Assembly (NCBI GenBank): GCA_041738615.1
Contig: JBGSPL010000001.1
Span: 92,071 to 156,070 of the forward strand
Length of the DNA stretch: 64,000 nt
Source of the DNA: Patescibacteria group bacterium
GTDB lineage: Bacteria; Patescibacteriota; CPR2; UBA1875; CAIMLA01
Reading direction: 5' to 3'
A program made the position numbers and the translations under genes. Below, piece by piece: positions 2,587-42,882 of this stretch (position 1 is the first letter of the stretch; every line of letters starts with the position of its first letter). The notes under the pieces are model-generated. The model did not search any database. It had not been told where the DNA came from and saw only the letters and a program-made list of their open reading frames with translations.

Positions 2587-3700
2587 TACGGTAGAGCTTT
2601 TATATATTGGATCCAAGGAAGGTCTGGAGAGTAAAATTATTCCTCAGACAGGGCTCAAGTATGTCGGCATCAGTGCAGGCAAATTTCGTCGTTACCACAC
2701 AGCCACTTGGCTTAATATTATCGACCCCACCACTTTGTACAAGAATGTTGTCGATTTCTTTCGTTTTGTGAGAGGTTACTTCGAGGCCAAGGAAATCATT
2801 GCTGAATTCGATCCAGATGTGGTCTTCACCAAGGGTGGCTACGTCAGTTTGCCAGTAGGGCTAGCGGCACATTCTCTCGGATATCCGGTAGTGGTGCATG
2901 AAAGTGACAGTGTGATGGGTCTTTCCAATCGCATCCTCGCAAAACGCGCCGACAAAGTTTGTGTTTCGTATCCACTAAAGTCATATACCGAAGTCGAAAA
3001 GGATAAACTCGTGTATACTGGCAACCCAGTAAGGAACGATATTTACGACGGTAGCAAAGAGCGCGCTATCACCGAATTTCGGCTTCACGACAAGTTGCCA
3101 ATACTTTTTGTCATCGGCGGCAGCCAGGGGTCTCTAGTGATCAATCAAGTGGTTTCCGAGTCGCTTGCGAAGCTCCTCGCCAAGTACCAGATTATCCATG
3201 TTTCTGGTGAGAGAGACTATGACTGGTTAGGTTTTCAGGCGAGTAAGCTGGCTCCAGAGCTTTCGGCAAACTATCATTTGTACAACTTTCTTTCGGGGAA
3301 CCTAAAGGATGCCCTTGCAGTTTCCGATCTAGTAATTTCGCGGGCCGGGAACAACGTCATCGCCGAGATTGCTGCCCTCGAAAAGGCGGCAATTCTGATT
3401 CCACTGGCATCATCGGCAAACGGTCATCAGGTTTCAAATGCCAAGATCCTTTCCCGTATGGGCGCAGCTATGCTGGTCCTTCAGGAGAGTCTTACTCCCC
3501 GAATCCTTGAGCGTAAAATCGATTATCTCTTCGAGAATCCAGAGGAGCGTGCTGGCCTGGCAACGAAGCTTTCCAAGCTTGCTTCCCCAGAGGCTGCAGG
3601 CGCCGTCGCCGACATTATCTACGACTTAGGTACCAATTTTGTTCTAGAAACAAAGGCGGAGGAGGAAACCCCTGAGGAAAAGACTGAGGAAACTGAATAG
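2501..3700 (+). CDS. murG: UDP-GlcNAc:lipid I N-acetylglucosaminyltransferase MurG
   Basis: MRIVVSGGGTGGHISPVLAV G-loop, GT28 N- and C-terminal domains. Start chosen at the ATG at 2501, which is preceded by AAGGAGGAA. The ORF track's upstream ATG at 2480 lacks a ribosome-binding site. Confidence 0.9.
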   Translation: MRIVVSGGGTGGHISPVLAVVAELQKLDSTVELLYIGSKEGLESKIIPQTGLKYVGISAGKFRRYHTATWLNIIDPTTLYKNVVDFFRFVRGYFEAKEIIAEFDPDVVFTKGGYVSLPVGLAAHSLGYPVVVHESDSVMGLSNRILAKRADKVCVSYPLKSYTEVEKDKLVYTGNPVRNDIYDGSKERAITEFRLHDKLPILFVIGGSQGSLVINQVVSESLAKLLAKYQIIHVSGERDYDWLGFQASKLAPELSANYHLYNFLSGNLKDALAVSDLVISRAGNNVIAEIAALEKAAILIPLASSANGHQVSNAKILSRMGAAMLVLQESLTPRILERKIDYLFENPEERAGLATKLSKLASPEAAGAVADIIYDLGTNFVLETKAEEETPEEKTEETE

Positions 3701-4481: not shown

Positions 4482-4487
4482 TGTCTA

Positions 4488-4511
4488 GATACTTTTGTCC
4501 GTAGTCACAAA
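4488..4511 (+). repeat. direct repeat A, copy 1 (gatacttttgtccGtagtcacaaa)
   Basis: A 24-nt motif 23/24 identical to 10113-10136. It lies 7 bp after the ftsQ stop. Together with repeat B it brackets the 5.6-kb accessory segment. Confidence 0.8.
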
Positions 4512-4692
4512 TCCTTACCACTTTTGGCAGCAAAAGTGGTGCAAAACTGCCGACTCCTTGCAAAATCGCAAGTGTCACTCCTACTTCATTCCCTCATAAA
4601 AACCAAAACTCACTGCGTTCAAACATTGTCTTTTATGATAGTCACTCAGGTCGTCGCTCGCTGTATTTTGCAGGTCGCGGTAAAAGAACTTC

Positions 4693-4729
4693 TACGTCAT
4701 TGCGAGGAGCGCAGCGACGCGGCAATCTC
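4693..4729 (+). repeat. direct repeat B, copy 1 (aagaact..tacgtcattgcgag..gcggcaatctc hairpin element)
   Basis: Matches 10243-10280 (aagaactatacgtcattgcgagcgagccgcggcaatctc). A member of the CGTCATYSC-plus-hairpin repeat family. Confidence 0.7.
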
Positions 4730-5318
4730 ATTATTGAAAATTGAAAACTGTAATTTGAAATTTTGGGGGAGACCTGGGGGAGTGGGCAAGTGGGCAAAAG
4801 AATTAACTAATAATATATTAAATGCTAATTAATTATTATTGTGCTGGCCGCGCTCTAAACTTTCGGTAGGCGAGCGGAAACTGTTTATAGCCCGGGTTCG
4901 TTGGCCGATTTTCATGCCTGTAATTTGACCAAAACTTTGGCACGGAAACCAGCCGACAAAAGGCCTCTTGTTCGCGGGTGCAACCCTTCGATTAAGACTT
5001 ACTGTAGGGAAAATACACGCACAAAACACGTTTTGGATGACCAACTACACCCGGGGATTTCAGAATGCGCAATGTCGTCCAAGATATATTGTGCGACACA
5101 GTATCAATCGCTGAGATGACAGGCTACAAAGCAGTACGGATGTGAAATATTTACTCAAAAATTATATTCCCCTGGGCCTTCCGCTTCCTCGGCGTTGGCC
5201 CCTTCTGTTTTAGTATATATCCAAATATTCACAAATATTGGGCCTCCCGGTTCGGGCCTGTTTTAGACAAAATTACAGCCCATATTGTATGAGCTGTAAA
5301 GATTGCCGAATCGGCAGA

Positions 5319-8300
5319 TTATGGTTTTGTTAGGTGAACAGTCTCCCCTGGCCTTAGCTCTTTGGCGACCACCTTGATTCGTTCGTGAGGTTCTATTGTC
5401 TTTAGGTTGTGAAAATCCTCTGGTGTGATCTGCTTCTCTATTTTTTCACGGTAAATAGGGGTTTCTTTGGGGTGGGAGACAGAGAGTAGCACGTCTTTGA
5501 TCTCGGCCAGGCTCTTCCCTATCGGCTCAGCCTGTACAGGTTTTTCTGGCTTAGGAGTTTCTTTTGGTTCTACTTTTTCGACCACTGCAGGCTGCTCTGC
5601 TGCTACAGGTTCTTTTGGGGTTTCTATTTTCTTCATTGGTGCCTCAGGTGCAGGTTTTCTGGTCTCTTCCTGGGGTTTTTCGGGCACGCTGACGGCCTTC
5701 TTTAGACTAGATAGTGTATCTACCCCAATTTTGTCTGCAATCGTCTCTCGCGCCTTCTCAGAGGGGGTGGCTTTGAGCTTGGTGAGTAGCTCTTCTAGGA
5801 TTGCTTTCGTATCTGTATGGTCCTCAACACCGAGGAACTTGCTTCCGCCTCCAAGACCAGCCCCGATGGCTTGTAGCTGATCGATCATTTCTGCAGTTGT
5901 ACCTACCCAGACGTCTGGAGCGCGACCGTCTCCAAAGAGATCGTGCTCGCGGGGCTCGTACATACTAATCTTTACTTCATAAATCTTCTGGCCATTCTTT
6001 TTGTAGTTATTGCCCTTTTGGCGACCACGCTTATCAGGGATGAGCCCCTCGGGTTTATTGTCTGGCAGGAAGACGTATTTATCGTCCTTATCTTTGTGGC
6101 GGACGATATAGTCGGCACTCTTCTCGAGCTCCGCGATTACTTTTTGTTTCTCGGTCATAGGTTTATCGGCTACTTTCTTCGTATTTTTAGTATTTGCAAT
6201 AATCGCAAGCTGCAAGTCGCTTTTCTTCTGGAGCTCGGAAGGCTTGCTGGCTGGTGGATTAATATTAGTTTCTTTCTTTTCTCGTAGCGGCTGCGTGGGG
6301 GCACTCCCCTGCTCAGATTTTTCGCGGATGATGGTAGGTTTTGGCTTGGTCATGATAGGATCGTCCTTCTCATTGGCGTTGATACCAGCGACCACTGAGT
6401 CCACGTTGTACCAGTGCTTTACCTCTTCCTCTACGATCTCCCGTTTCTTACCGTACTTTTCACGTGATACCGCCTTCACGATTGGAGAGCAGTCCTCTAT
6501 CATCTCAGGCGTGTTTAGGGACATTGCGGAGAAAGGGATACTGGTGACGCCATTGATCAGCATGTTTAGGTACATATGTCTGTTATCTAGGTTTATCAGA
6601 TCGTTTTGGGTAAATACCGGCTCAAATTCCTTCTCTAGGTAGGAGGCGTCAGTAGCCCCGACGCGGAAAGATACTAGCGTACCGACGTTACCAAAGACAG
6701 CGTCACGGACGGTTTCTTCCATCTGGGCAATGTACTGATTGGCTACGCAGAGAGATAAGCGATATTTACGCGCCTCAGAAAGAATAGTCGCAAAGGAGTC
6801 GGTGGCAAAGTTCTGGAACTCGTCGACGTATAGGTAAAAGTCCTTGCGTTCCTCTTCGGGGATGTAGGCGCGTTGCATCGCGGCAAGCTGCAGCTTGGTA
6901 ATAATCAGGCTTCCCAGCAGCTCGGAGTTTACCTCGCCAATCTTGCCTGTCGAGAGGTCCACTAGGAGAATCTTGCCTGTATTCATAATCTCGCCAAAGT
7001 CGATGCTGCTCTTGGGCTGGCCGACGATGTTGCGGATTATCGCAGAAGCCGTAAACTGCCCCACCTTATTTAGGATAGGAGCGACGGTTTCGGTGGCCAT
7101 CTTGTCATTGTAGGTCGAGAATTCCTTGAGCCAGAACATCTGCACTACTGGGTCTGTCACCTGTTCTACGATGCGCTTGCGATAGCCCTTGTCGGTAAGA
7201 AGGCGAACGATACCGAGCATGGTAGAGCCTTCGACTTCAGAGAGCGCTAGTACTGTATGGTTTAGGACGTATTCCAAACGAGGACCCCAGGAGTAGCCGA
7301 ACATACGCTTCAGTACTGAGATAAAGCCCTTGGCCGTTTCCTCGCGCATCCCCTCGGGGCTCTCTAGTGGATTGAATCCGATCGGGAAGTCCTTGTCCGC
7401 AGGGTTTAGGTAGATTACATCATCTATGCGTTCCTTCGGGATGTATTTCATGATCAGCTCTATTAGCTCGCCATGAGGATCCACGACAGCTACACCCTCG
7501 CCATTTATAATGTCGTTAATCGCAAGGTTTGCCATCATGCGTGATTTACCAACACCACTCTTACCGATGATGTACATGTGACGTCTGCGGTCGTCTCGAG
7601 TAATACCGAAGGTACGCTTGCCGTTACGGAAGGTCGTCGTGCCCATCGGAGTAAGCTCTATATCTACAGCATCCTCGGCATCGATTATGTGCAGGCTGCT
7701 TGGTGGCTCGCCCTTTTTGGACGAGGTCCACAAGATGTTTGGAGTCTCTACAGAAACGTGAGGCAAGTGGTATAGGCTGGCCAGCTCCTCGATGTTTAGT
7801 GTGTAGCCGTGGTTATTGAAAAGACGAGCACGGTAGGCGTCCAGAAAGTCCTGGCCTGTATAGAGCCCACTTCCCTGGAAACCGTTTAGATTAGTCGTAT
7901 TGAACTGTTTGAAGGCACCGATTACGGCCTGGATACGTTCCTTGGCCTTCTCGGGGCTCTTGGCGAGATAACAGATGCGGATGATTACCTTGTAGCCAAG
8001 CTTGTTGGCCTTCTCTTCAATTGCAGAGAGCTCCGTTTCCTCTGAGTGGGAAAGCTTCGGTACTTCCTTCTCCTTCTTCTCTTTTTCCTTTTTCTCCTTC
8101 TCTTCCTGCTTTTTCTTTTGCTCGGGGGTCATCGGAGAAATAACCGTATTTATCACATACGGAATCGCTTGCAATGGCATGATGAGGACGTCGATTAGTT
8201 TGTGAACCCAGGTATCTTCACCACCGGCCCCACCCTTTTTGCTAGCGATGTGCCCTAGGGAGCCATCTCTCCATTCGTCATCCACTGGCTTGGCGAGAAT

Positions 8301-8894
8301 TTGAATCCACACTTGCTCGCTCTTCTGCTCAATCTTGGAGAGCATTCCTGTGATTCCGGCTAGCGGGTCTACGTCAAAGTTTAGAAAGGTCTTAATCGGG
8401 TAGATTTCATCCTTCGTGAGGACCAACTCGGTTCCGACCACGGCGTCGTCTACCTTGTCGTCGTCGATATCGATATCTAGTGAGTAGTCAGGGACGGTAG
8501 TAATCTCTGCTGTCGGGTACTGGGCGTATACTTGCCCCTCTACAAAGTCCTTTAGATGGGTTGGTACCCAGATAAAGAACTCGATGGCATTGAGGGTCGA
8601 TACTATCTCGAAGCTCAGGTGCTCCTGTACCGAAAGTCCTTTCTTCTGCTGGCTCTTGGGATGTAAGATACCATGAAGAGCCGCGAGCATCATCTCCGCA
8701 GCTACCGGGCCTTTTTCGTTATTTTTAGGGATTTTGATCGAGAGAACGACCGTTTCAATCGCCTCGACATACTCTGCTTTTTTGTAGTTCTTCCAGGTGA
8801 GGTAGGCCATAATCGGTACTACTATCCACCATGTCCAAACCACGACGGACCACATGCCGCCGAGTATCGCCAGGCTAATATCTTGAATCAGCAC
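5319..8894 (-). CDS. type IV coupling-protein-like DNA translocase ATPase (TraG/VirD4/TraD family, FtsK/HerA superfamily) with N-terminal TM anchor and a roughly 420-aa low-complexity K/E/P-rich C-terminal tail
   Basis: 1191-aa protein. One or two N-terminal TM helices (ILGGMWSVVVWTWWIVVPIMAYLTW). Walker A is IIGKSGVGKSRMM and Walker B is YLYVDEFQNF. A coupling-protein C-terminal motif is present (ARKYRLSLCVANQYIAQMEE..FGNVGTLVSFRVG). There is a (KE)n run (KKQEEKEKKEKEKKEKE) and a PKE/PE-rich tail. Confidence 0.75.
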   Translation of the reverse strand: MLIQDISLAILGGMWSVVVWTWWIVVPIMAYLTWKNYKKAEYVEAIETVVLSIKIPKNNEKGPVAAEMMLAALHGILHPKSQQKKGLSVQEHLSFEIVSTLNAIEFFIWVPTHLKDFVEGQVYAQYPTAEITTVPDYSLDIDIDDDKVDDAVVGTELVLTKDEIYPIKTFLNFDVDPLAGITGMLSKIEQKSEQVWIQILAKPVDDEWRDGSLGHIASKKGGAGGEDTWVHKLIDVLIMPLQAIPYVINTVISPMTPEQKKKQEEKEKKEKEKKEKEVPKLSHSEETELSAIEEKANKLGYKVIIRICYLAKSPEKAKERIQAVIGAFKQFNTTNLNGFQGSGLYTGQDFLDAYRARLFNNHGYTLNIEELASLYHLPHVSVETPNILWTSSKKGEPPSSLHIIDAEDAVDIELTPMGTTTFRNGKRTFGITRDDRRRHMYIIGKSGVGKSRMMANLAINDIINGEGVAVVDPHGELIELIMKYIPKERIDDVIYLNPADKDFPIGFNPLESPEGMREETAKGFISVLKRMFGYSWGPRLEYVLNHTVLALSEVEGSTMLGIVRLLTDKGYRKRIVEQVTDPVVQMFWLKEFSTYNDKMATETVAPILNKVGQFTASAIIRNIVGQPKSSIDFGEIMNTGKILLVDLSTGKIGEVNSELLGSLIITKLQLAAMQRAYIPEEERKDFYLYVDEFQNFATDSFATILSEARKYRLSLCVANQYIAQMEETVRDAVFGNVGTLVSFRVGATDASYLEKEFEPVFTQNDLINLDNRHMYLNMLINGVTSIPFSAMSLNTPEMIEDCSPIVKAVSREKYGKKREIVEEEVKHWYNVDSVVAGINANEKDDPIMTKPKPTIIREKSEQGSAPTQPLREKKETNINPPASKPSELQKKSDLQLAIIANTKNTKKVADKPMTEKQKVIAELEKSADYIVRHKDKDDKYVFLPDNKPEGLIPDKRGRQKGNNYKKNGQKIYEVKISMYEPREHDLFGDGRAPDVWVGTTAEMIDQLQAIGAGLGGGSKFLGVEDHTDTKAILEELLTKLKATPSEKARETIADKIGVDTLSSLKKAVSVPEKPQEETRKPAPEAPMKKIETPKEPVAAEQPAVVEKVEPKETPKPEKPVQAEPIGKSLAEIKDVLLSVSHPKETPIYREKIEKQITPEDFHNLKTIEPHERIKVVAKELRPGETVHLTKP

Positions 8895-9977: not shown

Positions 9978-10053
9978 TTACAGTGCAATTATAGCACAAA
10001 AGACGCAATGCGTCAACGATTTTATAACACATTTATTCTATGCATTTTCTCAT

Positions 10054-10079
10054 GTCATTCCTGGTCGTAAGCCAGGAAC
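10054..10079 (+). repeat. hairpin repeat (gtcattcctggtcgtaagccaggaac)
   Basis: 7-bp stem (ttcctgg/ccaggaa) with a GTCATTCC lead. Nearly identical to the reverse complement of 25267-25293. Confidence 0.7.
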
Positions 10080-10112
10080 CCAAACTTTGCCTTGCTAAAG
10101 CAAGGCGCTCTC

Positions 10113-10136
10113 GATACTTTTGTCCATAGTCACAAA
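10113..10136 (+). repeat. direct repeat A, copy 2 (gatacttttgtccAtagtcacaaa)
   Basis: 23/24 identical to 4488-4511. Confidence 0.8.
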
Positions 10137-10242
10137 AGTATCCAAAAAGACACTTTAAATGCGGCGGTCTGCTGACCTTCGCAGTAGGTATTCGTCAATG
10201 TTTTATCTCTATCATAAAGCCATCAAGGCAGACACATCCATA

Positions 10243-10280
10243 AGAACTATACGTCATTGCGAGCGAGCCGCGGCAATCTC
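10243..10280 (+). repeat. direct repeat B, copy 2
   Basis: Matches 4686-4729, including the flanking aagaact. Confidence 0.7.
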
Positions 10281-10311
10281 TTCCCCCGCCATTTCAGCAT
10301 GGGCGGGAATC

Positions 10312-11034
10312 TTATCCCGCAAGGATTGTAGCTAGAAATATGACGGCCATACCGACTACGGTCATGATGGATGTCCATATGGCTGGATGTCGGTGGTGAC
10401 TCTCTGGTATGAGGTCACTGGCGCTAATATATAGATATAGGCCGATAAATACGGAGAGGATAAGTCCAAGGGTTGGCTCAGAGACGGTAAAGAAAAATGC
10501 CGCCGTAACACCTAGGGCTGGAGCTATAGCTACGGCCGCAAGCCACCTTAGGGTTTCCTTTCGGTCGCTCTCTTTGTTGAAAATCATACTTACAGTATTG
10601 ATTCCATCTGAAAAATCATGAGAAAGAACGGCTAATGCGACCACCCAACCGACGGTTGGTGAAACTTGGAATGCTAAACCGATACCAAGACCATCGAGAA
10701 AACCGTGGAGGATGAGGGCCGAGGCACCAAGCTTTCTATTGTGAGCCGGATTTTCACATTCATGGTCTTCAGAGTGTGCATGGATAGAGAAAAATCGGTC
10801 CAGAAGCATGAATATAGAGAAACCAACCGCGATAAGAACAGTTACAAGCTCTATGCTGTATCTGTCCTTTGTCAGATTCAGTGCTTCCGGCAGCAGATCA
10901 AAAAGTGCTACTCCGAGTACCGTACCGGCGCTGAACCCCAGGATCAGGTGGAGCTTGTCTTTTAGCTTAATCGCAAAGAGCCCACCTAGAGTGGTGCTGA
11001 CGATCGCTGCAATAGTAATGATAAATATAATCAT
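10312..11034 (-). CDS. ZIP-family divalent metal (Zn/Fe) transporter
   Basis: 240-aa protein with 8 TM helices, His-rich loop (HAHSEDHECENPAHNRK) and HGFLDGLGIGLAFQ / LSHDFSDGINT motifs typical of ZupT/ZIP. Confidence 0.8.
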   Translation of the reverse strand: MIIFIITIAAIVSTTLGGLFAIKLKDKLHLILGFSAGTVLGVALFDLLPEALNLTKDRYSIELVTVLIAVGFSIFMLLDRFFSIHAHSEDHECENPAHNRKLGASALILHGFLDGLGIGLAFQVSPTVGWVVALAVLSHDFSDGINTVSMIFNKESDRKETLRWLAAVAIAPALGVTAAFFFTVSEPTLGLILSVFIGLYLYISASDLIPESHHRHPAIWTSIMTVVGMAVIFLATILAG

Positions 11035-11103
11035 AGTTTTTTCTTCGCTGATGTTTCGTTCATGGCTTTATTCTACTCCCGTTTTGTGCTTAGGGCAAGG
11101 CAA

Positions 11104-11185
11104 TGAGAAGCGCCCCGGAGGGCGCTCTCGAGATGAGAACGTCCTACGGGGCGTGTGGTTAGCGCGGCTGGTAGGCGCTAGAAGA
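11104..11185 (+). repeat. about 80-bp gene-end repeat, copy 1 (contains palindrome gcgccc-cgga-gggcgc)
   Basis: Aligns with 11786-11868 (4 mismatches over 52 bp, then a degenerate tail). The stop codon of ORF 11178..11717 falls inside it. Confidence 0.8.
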
Positions 11186-11717
11186 AGGTCTTCGCGATAC
11201 GCGGATCGACCTTTCGAGATTCGTCGATACCTCCGAAGTGGGGATTCTCTATTGTGGCCTGATAAGCACCCCAGAGCCTGTTCCCTTCTTCTTCGGTGAT
11301 GCTGACGATGATGTCGCTGGCACTGTAGCCCACTCTACCTATCGTAGTCTTGAATGAGCAGGTTGCGTACCAGACGTCAGTGGTCGGGTAATTCTCCCTT
11401 TCATTGCCAGTGTCATCTATCCGGCTGTAGGCCGGAACGTGGGCTATCTGTTCTACCCGCAGGTGGGTTTCTCGCTTCAACGCTTCGGTGGCATATGCCA
11501 CCGACTTATCGAGTACTTTCTGTGCCCACCGGTTGAAGGCCTTTGCGACTCCCTTCCAGAAGTAGTTTGCCACCACGATCATGCAGATCATGGCGATGAC
11601 GATGAAAGCTGCTTTCGGTGTGAACACGGTTCGACCTCCAGTCGGTCCGAGGATGCTAACAAAGGCACCTGCTGATTTGCTCGGAGATATAATAACATAA
11701 TATTCCAATATAGTCAA
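11178..11717 (-). CDS. hypothetical protein with one predicted TM helix (GC-rich island)
   Basis: 179-aa ORF with a TM segment (AAFIVIAMICMIVVANYFW) and no recognisable domain. GC content well above the window background. Confidence 0.4.
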   Translation of the reverse strand: MTILEYYVIISPSKSAGAFVSILGPTGGRTVFTPKAAFIVIAMICMIVVANYFWKGVAKAFNRWAQKVLDKSVAYATEALKRETHLRVEQIAHVPAYSRIDDTGNERENYPTTDVWYATCSFKTTIGRVGYSASDIIVSITEEEGNRLWGAYQATIENPHFGGIDESRKVDPRIAKTFF

Positions 11718-11785: not shown

Positions 11786-11868
11786 ATGAAAAGCGCCCCG
11801 TAGGGCGCTCTCGTGATGAGAACGTCCTACGGGGCGTGATGTGGCCCGGACTTCTAGGCGAAATCCAT
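11786..11868 (+). repeat. about 80-bp gene-end repeat, copy 2 (palindrome gcgccc-cgta-gggcgc)
   Basis: See copy 1. The stop codon of ORF 11854..12231 falls inside it. The stem is preserved while the loop differs. Confidence 0.8.
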
Positions 11869-13249: not shown

Positions 13250-14338
13250 CTATTGTGACTCGTTTTTCTTGGCCATGGCAATAGCTGGGATACCAGCAAG
13301 TTGTACGATACCGCCAACAAGCCAGGCGAATGGTATACTGATTGCTTTGGACATATAGCCAAAACCAAGCTGACCGATAGTTCCCCCACCGTCTGCAAAA
13401 AGTGCATCCAAAGAGATTAGGGTGGCTCTTTCCGATGATGGTATTACACTATTGAACCAGGTAGCCTTTACTGGTCCCAGAATACCAAAAGCAGTTGTTG
13501 CTAGTATGTAAAGACCGACCGCGAGGTAGAAGTCGCCGGCGATAGCGGCCCCGATTATTGCAACGGCTTGTATAAAGATCAGTATTTTAATTAGGCTTGC
13601 ACGCTCTTTTACGATCTCCGTTGCCTTCTTTACCAGTAGGTTGCCTAGTATCTGGGAAAGGCCTATGAGAGCTGCAATGACTCCGGAGACCCATACCAGG
13701 TTTTGATTCAGAAGGTCTAGAAAATATTTTTGCCAAGAGTAGAAGCCGTAGATGAAGAAGAGGCTTTGCGCGAAGGTGGCAAACATGAGGTAGCGTGCCG
13801 TTTTGTTTTGCAAACCATATTGTGTCCCGACCCTTGCTATCCTGGCAGTCTCAGCTCCGAATTGTGATATTTGGAATTTTTTTGGAGTAAATCCGATATC
13901 TTTCATAAAGAAGAGGCCTAGCAAAAAGGCTGGTATGAGGAGTACGGCTCGTGCTATATAAGGCAATACTAGCTGATATTGCCCAAGCAAGCCCCCCGCG
14001 ACAGTACCAAGTAGCATGGAGATACCAAATACTACACCAGCACGGGCAAAGATTATTTCGATTTTGCCTTTGTAGTCTATCGATTTCAGGGCGTCTATCA
14101 TCCAAGCGTCTACCGCTCCTGTGTAGAAGGTAAAGCCAAGCCCTAGTAGGACTGATGATAGCATAAAGAGTAGAATTCCCCCGTGGACGAACCCAACATA
14201 ACCATACAAGAGAGTGGAGATAAGTATGATGGCAACCGAAAGGAGGTATGAGGTTCGCCGTCCTAGCGTATCTGCCACGACTCCGGTAGGAACCTCGAAA
14301 ACTACCTGGCCTGCGGTAAACGCCGCATTTATAATCAT
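13250..14338 (-). CDS. MFS transporter
   Basis: 362-aa protein with about 12 TM helices. The N-terminal motif VADTLGRRTSYLL (MFS motif A, G-R-R) is present. Confidence 0.8.
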   Translation of the reverse strand: MIINAAFTAGQVVFEVPTGVVADTLGRRTSYLLSVAIILISTLLYGYVGFVHGGILLFMLSSVLLGLGFTFYTGAVDAWMIDALKSIDYKGKIEIIFARAGVVFGISMLLGTVAGGLLGQYQLVLPYIARAVLLIPAFLLGLFFMKDIGFTPKKFQISQFGAETARIARVGTQYGLQNKTARYLMFATFAQSLFFIYGFYSWQKYFLDLLNQNLVWVSGVIAALIGLSQILGNLLVKKATEIVKERASLIKILIFIQAVAIIGAAIAGDFYLAVGLYILATTAFGILGPVKATWFNSVIPSSERATLISLDALFADGGGTIGQLGFGYMSKAISIPFAWLVGGIVQLAGIPAIAMAKKNESQ

Positions 14339-19985: not shown

Positions 19986-21080
19986 TCAAAAGTTTAAGCG
20001 AAAGACGTTGCCACCGAGCTGTTTCACCTTTGCCGATATTTCCATAATGGTGACAGTGGAACCTACCACGCTCTGCGAAAGACCTGTCTCTTTGATGATG
20101 TCATCTATATGTTTCGGCTCAGCACGCAGGCATTCTATAATTATTGTTTCTTCTGGAGTGTTTCCGGCGATTTTGCGGATGGAGGCTACGGCCTCGGGGC
20201 AAGTAATCCCAAATTCGTCCAGGACATCTTGGGCGCTGGTGCAGACATGGGCTCCGTTGCGGATCAAGTTGTTTGTTCCCCTACTGTTTAGGTTGAAGAT
20301 ACTTCCTGGTACCGCAAAGACCTCCCGGTTTTGGTTCAGTGCCGCAAGAGCCGTAATCAAGCTTCCGGAACTCTCCGCGGCCTCTGTAACCACTAAACCT
20401 TGAGAAATGCCGCTGATAATCCGGTTTCTAGCCGGGAAATTGTATTTTGCAGGGATGGTGTCAAAGGGAAACTCGGTAATGATGGCTCCACCTTGTGCAA
20501 TAATTTCTTTGGCCACACCCAAGTTACTACTGGGATAGATTCTACCTAGTCCGCACCCGAGCACAGCTATTGTAATCCCGCCTTCGTTAATGGTAGCTTG
20601 ATGTGCGATAGCATCTATGCCCAGGGCGAGCCCGCTGACTATCGTAATCCCACTAGCGGCAAGGTCGGAGGCTAGCTTCTCGGTAGCGCGAACGCCATAA
20701 TCGGTGAGCCTCCTACTGCCGACAATCCCAACGCAGAGTGCATTTAGATCTGCAGACCCCTTCTTGTATAAGATAAACGGAGGGTCGTATATTTGGAGTA
20801 ATATTTGGGGAAAATCGTTTTCAAAGATAAATATTGGTTCTATTTCGTTGCCACGCAGCTCCTGTAGCACTTTTTCTGGAGTGTATTTCTCGCGGGCAAC
20901 GATCAGCTCGCGCATACAACGTTCGCTGAGACCAAGTGACCCCAGCTTGGCTTTCGGGTAAGAAAAGAGCTCCTCGATAGGAATGTTGAGAGCGTAGAGT
21001 TGGTGAAAAAGAGCAGCGGTAAACCGGACGTTTCTACCTAAAGTAAGCCAATATTTATAGTCTTCCAGTGACTTTTCCAC
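19986..21080 (-). CDS. dprA: DNA processing protein DprA (Smf)
   Basis: Rossmann-like DprA core (GSRRLTDYGVRATEKLASDLAASGITIVSGLALGIDAIAHQ). Start placed at the GTG at 21080, which is preceded by GGAGGG. The ORF track's longer N-terminus (to 21206) looks non-native. Confidence 0.8.
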   Translation of the reverse strand: MEKSLEDYKYWLTLGRNVRFTAALFHQLYALNIPIEELFSYPKAKLGSLGLSERCMRELIVAREKYTPEKVLQELRGNEIEPIFIFENDFPQILLQIYDPPFILYKKGSADLNALCVGIVGSRRLTDYGVRATEKLASDLAASGITIVSGLALGIDAIAHQATINEGGITIAVLGCGLGRIYPSSNLGVAKEIIAQGGAIITEFPFDTIPAKYNFPARNRIISGISQGLVVTEAAESSGSLITALAALNQNREVFAVPGSIFNLNSRGTNNLIRNGAHVCTSAQDVLDEFGITCPEAVASIRKIAGNTPEETIIIECLRAEPKHIDDIIKETGLSQSVVGSTVTIMEISAKVKQLGGNVFRLNF

Positions 21081-21098
21081 AATCCCTCCAAAAAATGC

Positions 21099-21127
21099 TT
21101 GACAAAACCTACGTATGGTGCTAGAAT
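21099..21127 (+). promoter_or_regulatory. strong sigma-70-type promoter (TTGACA-17-TAGAAT with TGn extended -10)
   Basis: TTGACA at 21099-21104, a 17-nt spacer, and tgcTAGAAT at 21119-21127. It is divergent from dprA and fires into the 280-bp non-coding gap before pth. Confidence 0.55.
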
Positions 21128-21134
21128 GATATGT

Positions 21135-21378
21135 CAGCCTAAATCGGGCAGACATTTGACAATAAGTTCCCCTACACAGCACATGTTGCCGTGAGTGTCC
21201 TATCAATGAGTAAGGCCTTAAACACCCTCCTTTAAGCTTACTTGTTGGTAGGGTTCTCCCTGCAACCGCCAGCCAATATTTTGGGCTAGGTCAAGTCTTC
21301 GGGCAGTGTTGCAACCTCGGGAGAACTTTGAAACAAAAGTAAAGGAGTCGTACTTGTACGGCTCCTTTACTTTATTAT
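21135..21378 (+). ncRNA. candidate small RNA (about 240 nt) of unknown class
   Basis: Delimited by the promoter at 21099-21127 and an intrinsic terminator (14-bp stem at 21339-21370 plus TTTATT). No ORF of 40 aa or more with a ribosome-binding site. The 330-bp non-coding gap is unusually large for this genome. Confidence 0.35.
21339..21378. terminator. bidirectional rho-independent terminator
   Basis: gtaaaggagtcgtac-ttg-tacggctcctttac forms a 14-bp stem with one G-U pair. It has a T-run on the plus strand (tttatt) and a T-run on the minus strand (ttttgttt), so it also terminates pth. Confidence 0.7.
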
Positions 21379-23387: not shown

Positions 23388-23412
23388 CGTCATCCTGAAC
23401 TTGATTCAGGAT
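23388..23412 (+). repeat. hairpin repeat (cgtcatcctgaa-cttga-ttcaggat)
   Basis: 8-bp inverted repeat with a CGTCATCC lead. Same family as 38874, 25224, 10054 and 4693. Lies in the intergenic region between dacA and der. Confidence 0.6.
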
Positions 23413-23629
23413 CTCCGGCGTGTCATTTCGACCGCTACGGAGAAATCTCTTAATTATTGTTCTTTTCCATTTTCTCTTGAAAGAAAACGGAGCTAAGTTC
23501 AAGAATAATCGAACTCACAACGACCCGGTACGAAATTTTGCTAAAGCAATAATTTCTAGCATTCGTCGATAGTCGGGTGCGTGGCGCCGAGCGATTTTTC
23601 GAGGAATTAGGAGCGAAGCGACGTATATT

Positions 23630-24526: not shown

Positions 24527-25229
24527 TCTTGAGCCCTTCTAGCTCCTTTGCGGTGAGGGGGCGGTATTTTCCCTCAGCGAGCCCACTGAGCCCCAGGTTG
24601 CCTATCCTGACACGCGAGAGGTGCATCACCTGCTTACCAAAGTGCTCGATGGAGCGCCTAATAAGTCTGTTCCTCCCTTCGTGAATGATCATCTGGTATT
24701 TTCCTGGCGAAATTTCACTAAACTTATCTGGTTTAAAGGGCCCGTCTTCCAGGGTGATTCCCTTCGTCATCTTGCCTACCTCGGTAGTCGAGAGCGGCCG
24801 ATCTACTGTAATCTGGTATTCTTTTTCCTTGTTGTAGCGCGGATGGGTCATCTTGTTCGTAAAGTCACCGTCGTTACTCATAATAATAAGTCCCGAGGTC
24901 TCACGATCGAGTCTACCGACGGGCCATACAGGAATTTCTTTTGGGACTAGCTCCGCGATTAGTTTCTCTGCATGGAGGTCAAAAACACTACAGGTATACC
25001 CGGTAGGCTTGTTCACTAGATAATAGACTAGCTTGTTTGGCACTACGGGTTGGTCGTCGATGGCAATGGTCTCGCTGCCGATCACGTTTGTCGCCACATC
25101 GGTAACAATCTTTCCATCTATGGTCACATAGCCGCTTTTTATAATGTCCTCCGAGGCGCGCCGAGAGGCGACCCCGCAGGAGGCTAGATATTTAGCTAGT
25201 CTCATGAATTTGTTCACCTTTTTCGTCAT
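24519..25229 (-). CDS. rluB: rRNA pseudouridine synthase (RsuA/RluB family) with S4 domain
   Basis: S4 domain (MRLAKYLASCGVASRRASEDIIKSGYVTIDGK) and catalytic GRLDRETSGLIIMSNDG. Confidence 0.8.
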   Translation of the reverse strand: MTKKVNKFMRLAKYLASCGVASRRASEDIIKSGYVTIDGKIVTDVATNVIGSETIAIDDQPVVPNKLVYYLVNKPTGYTCSVFDLHAEKLIAELVPKEIPVWPVGRLDRETSGLIIMSNDGDFTNKMTHPRYNKEKEYQITVDRPLSTTEVGKMTKGITLEDGPFKPDKFSEISPGKYQMIIHEGRNRLIRRSIEHFGKQVMHLSRVRIGNLGLSGLAEGKYRPLTAKELEGLKNA

Positions 25230-25293
25230 TCCAGCGCAGGCTGGAATCTTGCGAATATTTTAATTGGGTTCCTGGCTTGCGACCAGGGATGAC
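25224..25293 (+). repeat. inverted pair of hairpin repeats (cgtcattccagcgcaggctggaatc ... ggttcctggcttgcgaccagggatgac)
   Basis: Arm 1 is near-identical to arm 1 at 38874. Arm 2 is the reverse complement of the 10054-type unit. Lies in the intergenic region between rluB and scpB. Confidence 0.7.
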
Positions 25294-25297
25294 AAGG

Positions 25298-38873: not shown

Positions 38874-38947
38874 CGTCATTCCAGCGAAGGCTGGAATCTA
38901 GCCTCTCGGCGACTTGTCTCTGGATTCCAGCCTTCGCTGGAATGACG
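38874..38947. repeat. perfect 25-bp inverted repeat (cgtcattccagcgaaggctggaatc ...24 nt... gattccagccttcgctggaatgacg)
   Basis: Each arm is itself an 8-bp hairpin. Lies in the intergenic region between the DUF2207 gene and the FMN reductase gene. Spurious ORF-track calls overlap it. Confidence 0.8.
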
Positions 38948-41463: not shown

Positions 41464-42882
41464 CTATTTGGTGGCCCCGAGCCTTTTGAGTGATTCTTCC
41501 CTGCCGAGGGCCCAGAGTAGCTCTGCGGGACTCGCTGACTTCTCGCAACCCGAAAGGGCGACGCGTACCGGCCAGAAAACATCAGCATTAGTTAGCGAGT
41601 TCGCGCTAACGACTTCAGTAAGGAATTCATTCCACTCCTCTACTGTTTTGGCCGTCCAAGCGGTGCTATTTAGAGCATTAAGGGCCTCAGAAATAGCACC
41701 TAGGCCCTTCTGGGTGGCCTCTGGCGTGCTTTTTTTGAAGACTAGTATATCTGGGCGGTATGTTGGTATCTGCCAGTAGGATGCTGCTATTTCGCCAAAT
41801 TCAGCCAGGGTTTTGATCCGGGTTTGCTCTACAGTTACCACGCGCTCGAGAAGGCCCCTCTCGTGTTTATCAAGGCTAGAATCGAAAGCAATTAGGCGAT
41901 CTGTAAGCTCGGGTACCGTAAGGTTGCGAATGTAAACCCCATTTAGATAATTGAGTCTCTCGACATCAAAGACCGCAGGAGCCCTACCGATACGGTTGAT
42001 TCCAAAGGCTTTCTCTAGCTCAGGTAATGTAAATATCTCCTCGGTTGTACCAGGGTTCCACCCGAGAAATACCAAAAAGTTTAGGAGTGCTTCTGGCAGG
42101 TATCCGTTCTCTTTGTACTCAGTAAGAGCGGTGTCTCCGTTACGTTTCGACAGTTTCTTCATGTCAGAACCAACAATCACAGGTACATGAGCGAATTCGG
42201 GGTGTTTCCAGCCTAAAGCCTTGTATACCAAAATATGTTTTGGGGTAGAGGGCACAAATTCGTCACCACGAATAACGAGATTGATGTTCATTTCGTGATC
42301 GTCGATAACATTTGCGAAGTTGTAAGTAGGCCAACCATCTGACTTGATAAGAATGAAGTCTTCTAACGGACGGGTAGGTATCGCAATTTTTCCACGGACT
42401 TTGTCATTCCAGCTTATTTCTGTAGGGTTTGGTGGTATTCGAAAACGAATAACGTGCTGAGCTCCCGATTTTTCAAACTCCGCTACTTCATCTGGAGACA
42501 ACTTTAGGCACTTCCTGTCGTATACAGGGGGTAACTTATCGGCAATTTGTTTCTCTTTTAACTGCGAAAGTCGCTCCTGAGAACAAAAACACCTGTAAGC
42601 CGCACCAGTTTTTAAGAGGCTGTAAACGTAAGATTGATAAAGAGGTACTCTGTCGGACTGAGAAATCACTTCCCCATCGTAGTTTAGTCCGAGCCATTTG
42701 AGACCTTCGTGAATAGCCTCTACTGCCCCTTCGACAAAACGCTCTCGATCGGTGTCTTCTATCCGGAGATTGAACTCACCATCCGAACCTTTGGCAGCTA
42801 GATAATCAAAAAGAGCGGTTCGGACTCCGCCAATGTGTAACATCCCAGTAGGACTGGGGGCAAAACGAGTTCTATATTCCAT
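41464..42882 (-). CDS. gltX: glutamate--tRNA ligase
   Basis: HIGG motif (FAPSPTGMLHIGGVRTA) and KMSKR (KLSKR) motif. 472 aa. Confidence 0.9.
   Translation of the reverse strand: MEYRTRFAPSPTGMLHIGGVRTALFDYLAAKGSDGEFNLRIEDTDRERFVEGAVEAIHEGLKWLGLNYDGEVISQSDRVPLYQSYVYSLLKTGAAYRCFCSQERLSQLKEKQIADKLPPVYDRKCLKLSPDEVAEFEKSGAQHVIRFRIPPNPTEISWNDKVRGKIAIPTRPLEDFILIKSDGWPTYNFANVIDDHEMNINLVIRGDEFVPSTPKHILVYKALGWKHPEFAHVPVIVGSDMKKLSKRNGDTALTEYKENGYLPEALLNFLVFLGWNPGTTEEIFTLPELEKAFGINRIGRAPAVFDVERLNYLNGVYIRNLTVPELTDRLIAFDSSLDKHERGLLERVVTVEQTRIKTLAEFGEIAASYWQIPTYRPDILVFKKSTPEATQKGLGAISEALNALNSTAWTAKTVEEWNEFLTEVVSANSLTNADVFWPVRVALSGCEKSASPAELLWALGREESLKRLGATK

Follow-up and report, generated by a model that had tools for sequence, protein, structure and literature searches.

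The window considered here is a stretch of 64 kb (64,000 nucleotides, taken as a whole) from contig JBGSPL010000001.1 of a Patescibacteria group bacterium (GCA_041738615.1). According to Pfam, its 58 main open reading frames (ORFs) and two further ORFs form an ordinary housekeeping region, whose genes include MraY-FtsW-MurG-FtsQ, topoisomerase I, DprA, Der, ScpA/B, tRNA synthetases, MreB, ribosomal proteins and RF-2. Ten short hairpin units lie between these genes, distributed over five intergenic gaps at a density of about one unit per 6 kb, all of them inside the non-coding fraction of the window (11.8%). It can be considered secure that these units belong to the superfamily of repetitive extragenic palindromic (REP) sequences that carry a CGTC tag, which takes in the dRS3/NTS repeats of Neisseria and the Ssn-related motifs (SRMs). 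The family itself is known and extends across phyla; what is new is its host lineage within the Patescibacteria (candidate phyla radiation), together with some variant unit types. Two aspects deserve most attention, the identity of the unit across phyla in the company of a GIY-YIG partner gene, and the exchange of perfect dimer types at one and the same gap.

Structure of the hairpin units

The nine tagged units share a common layout, in which an unpaired CGTC or TGTC tag is followed by a stem, a loop, a C placed right after the stem and two further bases (Table 1). Since the tag marks the 5' side and the C with its short tail the 3' side of the hairpin, the unit, of about 27-35 nt, is directional. 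The tag is CGTC in six units and TGTC in three, and it is missing from 10281-10314, a bulged hairpin that would be either a degenerate or a dRS3-like unit without CGTC tag and whose membership in the family is less certain than that of the others. The first stem pairs are A-T/T-A in seven of the nine tagged units, the two CCTGG-type units pairing only at position 2 (their last stem base is C). The base right behind the stem is always a C, and the 3' tail reads CCA in three units and CTN in six.

At least four stem types can be distinguished in the window: ATTCCAGC/GCTGGAAT (three units, 8-bp stem and 4-nt loop), ATCCTGAA/TTCAGGAT (one unit, 8-bp stem and the 5-nt loop CTTGA), AT(T/C)CCTGG/CCAGGAAC (two units, 7-nt loop), and ATTGC/GCAAT or ATTTC/GAAAT (three units), in which a 5-bp outer stem encloses a structured loop of 12-18 nt with a small inner hairpin. 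The types differ from each other at stem positions 3-8 by compensating changes. This was read from a direct pair table, given that a MAFFT alignment of the units left the stems out of register because of their different loop lengths.

Four of the units are combined into two inverted pairs, both of them with the tags outside (head-to-head, HH). The homodimer at 38874-38947 consists of CGTCATTCCAGCGAAGGCTGGAATC, a 24-nt spacer and GATTCCAGCCTTCGCTGGAATGACG, and its inverted repeat is perfect over 25 nt, as the initial annotation had noticed (arms 25/25 complementary), and 96% identical over 28 nt. It starts 13 nt after the stop codon of the DUF2207 gene and ends 25 nt before the ATG of the FMN-reductase gene, with a fold energy of -33.6 kcal/mol as DNA (z -11.1) and -54.9 kcal/mol as RNA (z -9.1). 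When the target-site duplication that is a criterion for miniature inverted-repeat transposable elements was looked for, no direct repeat was found in the flanks of this 74-nt dimer (..ACCAATCT / TGTGTGAG..), nor in those of the dimer of relative L125 that is described below. The pair at 25224-25294, also recognised earlier as two inverted subtypes, is an HH heterodimer of two distinct stem types.

Table 1. Hairpin units of the window with their layout (tag-stem-loop-stem-tail) and the gap in which they lie
Position	Strand	Layout	Stem and loop	SRM pattern	Gap	Placement
38874-38900	+	CGTC-ATTCCAGC-GAAG-GCTGGAAT-CTA	stem 8 bp, loop 4 nt	match	DUF2207 / FMN reductase	left half of HH homodimer 38874-38947
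38921-38947	-	CGTC-ATTCCAGC-GAAG-GCTGGAAT-CCA	stem 8 bp, loop 4 nt	match	DUF2207 / FMN reductase	right half of HH homodimer
25224-25250	+	CGTC-ATTCCAGC-GCAG-GCTGGAAT-CTT	stem 8 bp, loop 4 nt	match	ScpB / RluB	left half of HH heterodimer 25224-25294
25265-25294	-	TGTC-ATCCCTGG-TCGCAAG-CCAGGAAC-CCA	loop 7 nt, 2 stem mismatches	no match	ScpB / RluB	right half of heterodimer; begins 3 nt past ScpB stop; 94% match to the 10053 unit
23388-23415	+	CGTC-ATCCTGAA-CTTGA-TTCAGGAT-CTC	stem 8 bp, loop 5 nt	no match	D-Ala-D-Ala carboxypeptidase (DacA) / Der (23388-23449)	20 nt upstream of Der start codon
23421-23449	+	TGTC-ATTTC-(GA CCG CTA CGG A)-GAAAT-CTC	outer stem 5 bp, inner stem 3 bp	no match	DacA / Der	
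10053-10082	+	TGTC-ATTCCTGG-TCGTAAG-CCAGGAAC-CCA	loop 7 nt	no match	upstream of the promoter-like site of the sigma-r4/HARE-HTH gene, downstream of ZIP (10053-10314)	precedes the promoter-like site of the sigma-like gene
10252-10280	+	CGTC-ATTGC-(GA GCG AGC CGC G)-GCAAT-CTC	outer stem 5 bp plus inner stem	no match	as 10053-10082	
10281-10314	+	TTCCCCCGCCAT-TTCAGC-ATGGGCGGGAA-TCTTA	bulged hairpin, no tag	no match	as 10053-10082	abuts the 10252 unit
4695-4729	+	CGTC-ATTGC-(18-nt structured loop)-GCAAT-CTC	outer stem 5 bp	no match	FtsQ / TrwB/VirD4-like	between convergent genes

The units were recovered by scanning for (C/T)GTC-AT followed by a hairpin. The initial annotation had proposed a dispersed, REP/BIME-like family of short intergenic hairpins that are sometimes arranged as inverted pairs, and this description is borne out: the units that it had listed are real and lie at, or at most 2 nt from, the places where it had put them, all ten units are non-coding with no copy inside a coding sequence, and the only omissions were the tagged unit 23421-23449 and the tag-less 10281-10314. 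Its lead motif, CGTCATYSC, is indeed enriched, with eight occurrences against 1.46 expected, but it is not specific, as CGTCATCGC also occurs at 3355, 11593 and 16789 in coding sites without any hairpin. With three of its eight matches of this kind, the lead alone does not define the family; its conserved part is (C/T)GTC plus AT, the remaining letters already belonging to the stem. A tag joined to a stem of 7 bp or more is found five times against 0.15 in 200 dinucleotide shuffles, and the published SRM pattern, HGTCWYN(0-2)YYVSBRHN(0-5)WNVSBRGN(0-2)RNCYNB, has four matches in the window against 0.27 (200 shuffles), three of them units (Table 1) and the fourth an in-gene match that is probably due to chance. 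A chance origin of the repeats is ruled out by these shuffles.

Two minor observations may be added to this inventory. The six singleton units, which occupy three gaps, are all on the + strand with the genes on the - strand, a number that is too low for any conclusion, and GC skew is flat. Inside the glutamyl-tRNA synthetase gene, positions 42402-42413 carry a tag and a 5' half-stem, TGTCATTCCAGC, with no 3' arm; this half-unit, either a coincidence or a relic, was not counted.

Relation to known repeats and to the Ssn nucleases

REP sequences have been divided into superfamilies by their GTAG or CGTC tag (Di Nocera, De Gregorio & Rocco 2013, PMC3733652). In the same survey, CGTC REPs are described as having 8-9-bp stems that almost invariably open with complementary A-T residues, loops of 4-5 nt and a 3-nt tail that is mostly CCA, with TGTC (or CCTC) as tag variants, and they form mainly tags-outside dimers, both homo- and heterodimers. 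They were listed for five phyla, Patescibacteria not among them, they have no associated transposase, no CGTC family was found to flank a RAYT gene, and it was considered that CGTC families are possibly heading for extinction (PMC3733652). One of the families, CGTC-1, corresponds to dRS3 of Neisseria and to RPE-6 of Rickettsia (PMC3733652). The window units resemble CGTC-1 in their tag and 3-nt tail, in the 8-bp stem of four units that starts A-T/T-A and has a 4-nt loop (5 nt in one of them), in forming HH homo- and heterodimers, in their intergenic location, in the presence of several types in one genome and in having no adjacent transposase. They differ in their tails, mostly CTN instead of CCA, and in the three units with a 5-bp outer stem around a 12-18-nt structured loop, an arrangement that appears in the survey only among the exceptions.

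The enzyme of this family has been identified in Neisseria, where SsnA, a GIY-YIG nuclease of 94 aa with a single domain, has as its site NTS, the oriented form of dRS3 (CGTCATTCCCGCGMAVGCGGGAATCYRG) (Chenal et al. 2025, PMC11893778). SsnA binds the NTS hairpin only as single-stranded DNA (ssDNA), requires a C after the palindrome and cuts a few nucleotides upstream of the tag, being inactive on duplex DNA, on RNA and on the reverse strand; its activity reduces transformation by NTS-bearing DNA, and recognition by Ssn is sequence-specific as well as structural (PMC11893778). Ssn homologs from various phyla are flanked by SRMs, and those of Wolbachia and other Neisseria have been demonstrated to cut their own motifs (PMC11893778). 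The arrangement NTS-ssnA-NTS is reminiscent of an insertion sequence, although mobility was not demonstrated (PMC11893778). At the genome level, Ssn is encoded by 81% of the genomes with more than 200 SRMs, and 71% of ssn genes are associated with SRMs (PMC11893778); as this association holds for only 71% of the genes, the lack of ssn in 64 kb does not exclude that the window units are SRMs. In agreement with such a relationship, the only differences between the main type of the window, CGTCATTCCAGCGAAGGCTGGAATCYAG, and NTS are compensating changes in the stem, the SRM pattern fits three units, and unit types of the window flank ssn elsewhere, including in Patescibacteria. Unlike the Neisseria case, the window contains no ssn, seven of its units fall outside the pattern, and they do not cluster near particular surface-protein genes.

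Similarities with other repeats are more partial. Like NIMEs and BIMEs, the window units adjoin other short repeated modules (23471-23577 and 4515-4682) that recur in the related locus L126, and the heterodimers join two unit types as E. coli BIMEs join Y and Z REPs; unlike in NIMEs, the module sequences are unrelated to Neisseria RS elements, and mosaics are few in 64 kb. GTAG REPs and REPINs share with the family a directional tag plus hairpin, the occurrence in inverted doublets, an enzyme gene that lies between copies of its repeat and recognition as ssDNA; they differ in the tag (GTAG, not CGTC) and in the enzyme, which has an HUH/Y1 and not a GIY-YIG fold, transposition not having been demonstrated for Ssn. 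Finally, the consensus of RF02625 (WsnRNA46, a Wolbachia small RNA) is itself a TGTC-tagged inverted pair ending in ...GGAUCCAG, and the window dimer aligns with it from end to end. The score of 36.7 bits lies below the gathering threshold of 65.3, and the stem sequences are unrelated. Membership of the dimer in this small RNA family was rejected, the match reflecting a shared repeat architecture.

Distribution across phyla and association with ssn genes

The exact 24-nt core of the unit, GTCATTCCAGCGNAGGCTGGAATC, was found in at least 120 GTDB species genomes from about a dozen phyla. The scan covered 596 Gb with 23 specified bases, for which we calculate about 0.02 matches expected by chance. 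By record title, the core-bearing sequences among the matches listed belong to Dehalococcoidia, Chloroflexia, alpha-, beta- and gamma-Proteobacteria, Aquimarina and other Bacteroidota, Cloacimonadota, Saccharibacteria/Patescibacteria, KSB1, Ignavibacteriae, Planctomycetota, Acidimicrobiales (Actinomycetota), Sulfurovum (Campylobacterota) and Bdellovibrionota. In 130 copies conservation stops exactly at Y-GTC...ATC-CA-(G/T), and from these sharp limits it follows that the unit of 27-30 nt is the whole element. The tail is CCA in 179 of 247 cross-phylum copies of the core unit. Across the loci, 114 units are found in HH dimers, 15 in tail-to-tail (TT) and 18 in head-to-tail (HT) arrangement, with the partner tag mostly 40-60 nt away, and the 53 singletons seen elsewhere are spread over sense-tandem (14), antisense-tandem (12), convergent (15) and divergent (12) gene contexts, as judged from crude gene calls. 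Types other than the core are also shared, since the ATTGC...GCAAT type recurs in other phyla and the 4695 unit has a 97% match over 32 nt in L032, a metagenome-assembled genome titled Pseudomonadota bacterium. As a separate observation, the 10 nt on the 5' side of the tag (loci L001-L120) are depleted in G, 8-17% across phyla, and are otherwise unconserved; this is the region where SsnA reportedly cuts, and the depletion may represent a cleavage or an insertion preference.

A connection of the unit with ssn emerged from loci that had been picked by the 24-mer alone. Five of these 120 loci contain a single-domain GIY-YIG ORF of about 90 aa (PF01541, E 1e-13 to 1e-18), which in four of the five adjoins or is flanked by units. 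In L027 and L115 the order is unit(+)-ssn-unit(-), in L015 (Saccharibacteria) a unit lies 6 nt before the ssn ATG and a dimer after its stop codon, and in L047 a unit lies 30 nt upstream of ssn. Two Patescibacteria ssn loci that were fetched via the protein, L132 (GCA_041666325.1) and L133 (Doudnabacteria), are likewise embedded in TGTC/CGTC units. Both contain units with the CTTGA loop, a type that also flanks ssn in L015, and L132 has the stem type of the 23388 unit of the window. The Ssn family is very large and includes many Patescibacteria proteins. Contigs with close Ssn homologs, among the matches listed, are mostly 0.5-3 kb long, as one would expect of multi-copy genes flanked by repeats, which break metagenome assemblies. 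The sharing of identical units and of a GIY-YIG partner by distant phyla, found with tools independent of the 2025 paper, sharpens the question of how these repeats spread.

Turnover of the units among relatives

Comparison with related lineages indicates that the units come and go at given positions. L121, with 70-76% nucleotide identity to the window, has no units at ScpB|RluB or DacA|Der, where its gaps measure only about 10-40 nt. The sigma|ZIP gap is 64 nt in L128 and 56 nt in L130, versus 334 nt with three units in the window. At the DUF2207|FMN-reductase gap, L125 (58% DUF2207 identity) carries a perfect 26/26 HH dimer of another stem type, CGTCATTCTGAACTTGTTTCAGAATC followed by 17 nt and its complement, with a decayed unit adjoining it. 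In L126, a unit of the ATCCTGAA type, the stem of the 23388 unit, lies 35 nt past the FtsQ stop codon, and an exact ATTCCAGC-GAAG unit occupies another site. No units are present in about 21 kb each of L130 and L137, and among related lineages the density ranges from 0 to about one unit per 5 kb. Since relatives have no units at three orthologous gaps, or other types of them at two, unit turnover must be fast.

L135 contains two heterodimers that combine the short-loop type with the CCTGG type, like the one at 25224-25294. The recurrence suggests that heterodimers are a defined two-type composite, comparable to the Y and Z REPs of E. coli BIMEs. The L135 pairs lie at 13879-13949 and 20623-20696; the short-loop stem in these heterodimers reads ..C[CT][ACGT]GC, with a GNAG loop in two of the three dimers and GAAT at L135 20623, and the CCTGG-stem partners in the window and L135 have loops of 7-8 nt.

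The initial annotation had also placed two units at the boundaries of a 5.6-kb accessory segment. The 4.5-10.3 kb stretch does have two units close to its ends, but it is core synteny for the lineage: FtsQ, the TrwB-like, the sigma-like and the ZIP gene keep their order in L128 (61% FtsQ identity) and L130 (54%), and L126 (74%) keeps the first three, with ArsP_2 in place of ZIP. A role of the units as borders of an accessory island was discarded on the basis of this conserved synteny in three relatives.

Proposed role of the units and alternative explanations

From the literature and the associations described above, it appears probable that the units, as CGTC-tagged REPs or SRMs, are ssDNA hairpin sites for an Ssn nuclease encoded outside the window, and that the copies seen here are non-autonomous. 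The idea of the initial annotation that the units might be recognised by a dedicated enzyme thus comes close to what is known, the enzyme of the family being a GIY-YIG ssDNA nuclease (PMC11893778) and not the transposase or recombinase that it had in mind. In the working model, which is borrowed from the characterised family, a unit would fold when one DNA strand is exposed, during replication, repair or the entry of transforming or conjugative DNA. A small single-domain GIY-YIG Ssn would then bind the hairpin with its 3' C and cut the strand a few nucleotides 5' of the tag, sparing duplex DNA, RNA and the opposite strand. The units would be non-autonomous copies related to unit-ssn-unit cassettes. 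They would accumulate between genes either singly, in inverted pairs whose tags point outward, or in mosaics that also contain other short modules. The existence of a cognate Ssn beyond the window, the cutting of the units and the route of their spread are parts that we infer.

Several points weigh against this proposal. A regular-expression search, tblastn (E up to 100) and a four-sequence profile with filters off found no GIY-YIG or Ssn ORF, either in the 64 kb of the window or in loci of relatives that total about 150 kb. The seven units without a match to the SRM pattern, the three units whose 5-bp outer stem and long structured loop go beyond the usual 4-5-nt loops of CGTC REPs, and the prevalence of CTN tails in place of the cross-phylum CCA all depart from the canonical form. 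Because Ssn is sequence-specific and there are at least four stem types, several enzymes, an enzyme of broad specificity or relics of past invasions would have to be invoked. In addition, neither the literature nor the present analysis explains how units are copied to new sites.

A rival possibility is that the units are orphan selfish or neutral DNA, relics of past unit-ssn-unit invasions or acquired DNA on which no enzyme acts today. The lack of ssn in the window would fit, as would the degenerate units (the mismatches of 25265-25294, the tag-less 10281-10314 and the decayed unit of L125), the variable density among related lineages and the suggestion that CGTC families may be nearing extinction (PMC3733652). 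The homodimer arms, 25/25 in the window and 26/26 in L125, are nonetheless perfect amid intergenic DNA that cannot be aligned, which implies recent formation or ongoing homogenisation; furthermore, Ssn accompanies SRMs in 81% of the genomes rich in them (PMC11893778) and is common in Patescibacteria. We therefore regard the orphan state as unlikely, while giving it some real weight. Unit-ssn-unit cassettes could also be a mobile element that is active, spreads horizontally and works by a new class of mechanism, the GIY-YIG ssDNA nuclease driving hairpin transposition or templated copying and the two-type heterodimer being the functional non-autonomous form. This is a speculative extension that we consider improbable; if it were true, such cassettes would shape the DNA between genes in the minimal genomes of the candidate phyla radiation that rely on taking up DNA.

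A different class of explanation places the function in RNA, with transcribed hairpins that terminate transcription or shield the upstream mRNA from 3' exonucleases, roles demonstrated for some E. coli REPs. Four of the five gaps lie between same-strand genes, 10053-10314 being also bounded by a promoter-like site, the 38874-38947 dimer would be very stable as RNA and aligns end to end with WsnRNA46, if below threshold, and the stems vary by type and remain complementary. The compensating differences that the initial annotation had proposed to look for are thus present between types, but they cannot tell RNA from ssDNA structure. What decides against a terminator is that no T/U run follows any unit on either strand, the sequence past the stem being CYN, and that a terminator scan found none in register. 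Relatives with the same gene order do without units, the orientation of the 53 singletons with respect to genes is even, a function in RNA does not account for the conservation and asymmetry of tag and tail, and SsnA does not bind the RNA form. It is thus rather doubtful that the units are RNA elements, and termination or mRNA stabilisation, which the initial annotation had put forward, is not supported as their primary role. An effect on mRNA stability may arise secondarily, since operon transcripts would include the dimers.

It is very hard to sustain, on the other hand, that the units are REPs or REPINs moved by a RAYT (IS200/IS605-type Y1) transposase, or the target or attachment site of an IS110/Piv-type recombinase. 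The tag plus hairpin and the tags-outside pairs do parallel GTAG REPs and REPINs, and dRS3 serves as the integration site of Neisseria filamentous (Nf) prophages. The tag is, however, CGTC or TGTC and not GTAG, and the genes found flanked by units are GIY-YIG genes. No transposase, integrase, Y1/RAYT, IS110-type or GIY-YIG domain was detected by Pfam in the 58 main and two further ORFs of the window, so that the tnpA(REP)-like gene, which the initial annotation had proposed to look for elsewhere in the genome, has no counterpart among them (no Y1_Tnp domain in any window ORF). No CGTC family is known to flank a RAYT gene either (PMC3733652).

Genomic context and annotation

A scan of the window with Rfam at gathering thresholds returned only three tRNAs, and a permissive scan added hairpin-shaped noise (miRNA models) and the sub-threshold WsnRNA46 match. 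For annotation purposes, hairpins of this kind should be labelled as CGTC-type REPs or Ssn-related motifs and not as terminators. It is important to consider that the units generate spurious ORFs and false start codons. The mechanically called start of RluB at 25229 is an ATG within a unit tag (CGTCAT on the other strand) that adds eight codons to the start conserved with L121, at 25205, and a spurious 102-aa ORF, 4524-4832, runs through the 4695 unit (...RHCEERSDAAIS...). The units probably also break assemblies, and the fast-evolving intergenic mosaics that they mark can serve to type strains.

With regard to the surrounding genes, the window encodes DprA (19986-21206) and a 1191-aa TrwB/VirD4-like coupling ATPase (5319-8894), whose conserved partner has the sigma-r4/HARE-HTH architecture. 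DprA loads transforming ssDNA onto RecA. As both DprA and a TrwB/VirD4-like protein are encoded, it is plausible that ssDNA moves in this host and enters it by routes where a nuclease of the Ssn type could act. Upstream of the sigma-r4/HARE-HTH gene, positions 9988-10016 (-) form a near-consensus promoter-like site (TTGACG, 17 nt, TG-TATAAT; 11/12 matches) that is 97% conserved in L126 (10492-10527). The named homologs of the DUF2207 protein are all from Patescibacteria, with 31-36% identity.

Neighbouring modules and other repeats

Besides the units, the gaps contain other repeated sequences. A non-coding 168-nt module at 4515-4682, in the FtsQ|TrwB gap, is found inverted and 92% identical at L126 5114-5282, and again at L127 3671-3839. 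Against L126 it is more conserved than the flanking proteins (about 74%), and it has no match in Rfam; both a mobile module and a small RNA gene are conceivable. The 4695 unit lies outside this module, whose boundary ends just before it. A second module of about 107 nt (23471-23577) stands beside the CGTC units of the DacA|Der gap and occurs twice in L126 (4936-5038 and 10634-10736), in non-orthologous gaps and there too beside CGTC units. With independent modules beside the units, the gaps are NIME-like mosaics. Part of the 107-nt module, GGGTCGTTGTGAGTTCGATT (-), bears a faint resemblance to a tRNA T-arm.

Some further sequences outside the units are worth recording. In the FtsQ|TrwB region, GTCGTCCAAGATATATTGTGCGACAC at 5074-5099 is near-invariant in four lineages, with a single change in L130 and FtsQ identities as low as 54%, and a second conserved block, GGGGAGTGGG...AAAAGAATTAACTAAT...ATTAAAT, lies at about 4774-4825 in this gap of 0.5-1 kb. 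Neither block has an Rfam match at E<0.1, and they may represent an unrecognised RNA or a regulatory region of the TrwB-like operon. A direct repeat of 28 nt (26/28) is found at 4484-4511 and 10109-10136, the latter copy being a full palindrome, GATACTTTTGT-CCATAGTC-ACAAAAGTATC, and the former ending early, after ACAAA. It is probably another small family of hairpin repeats rather than an attachment site, given that DNA of core synteny separates the copies. Finally, a direct repeat of 75 nt (83%) at 11103-11177 and 11786-11860 flanks a 179-aa ORF without Pfam match (11178-11717, -), and each of its copies carries two GC-rich hairpins preceded by ATGAGAA.

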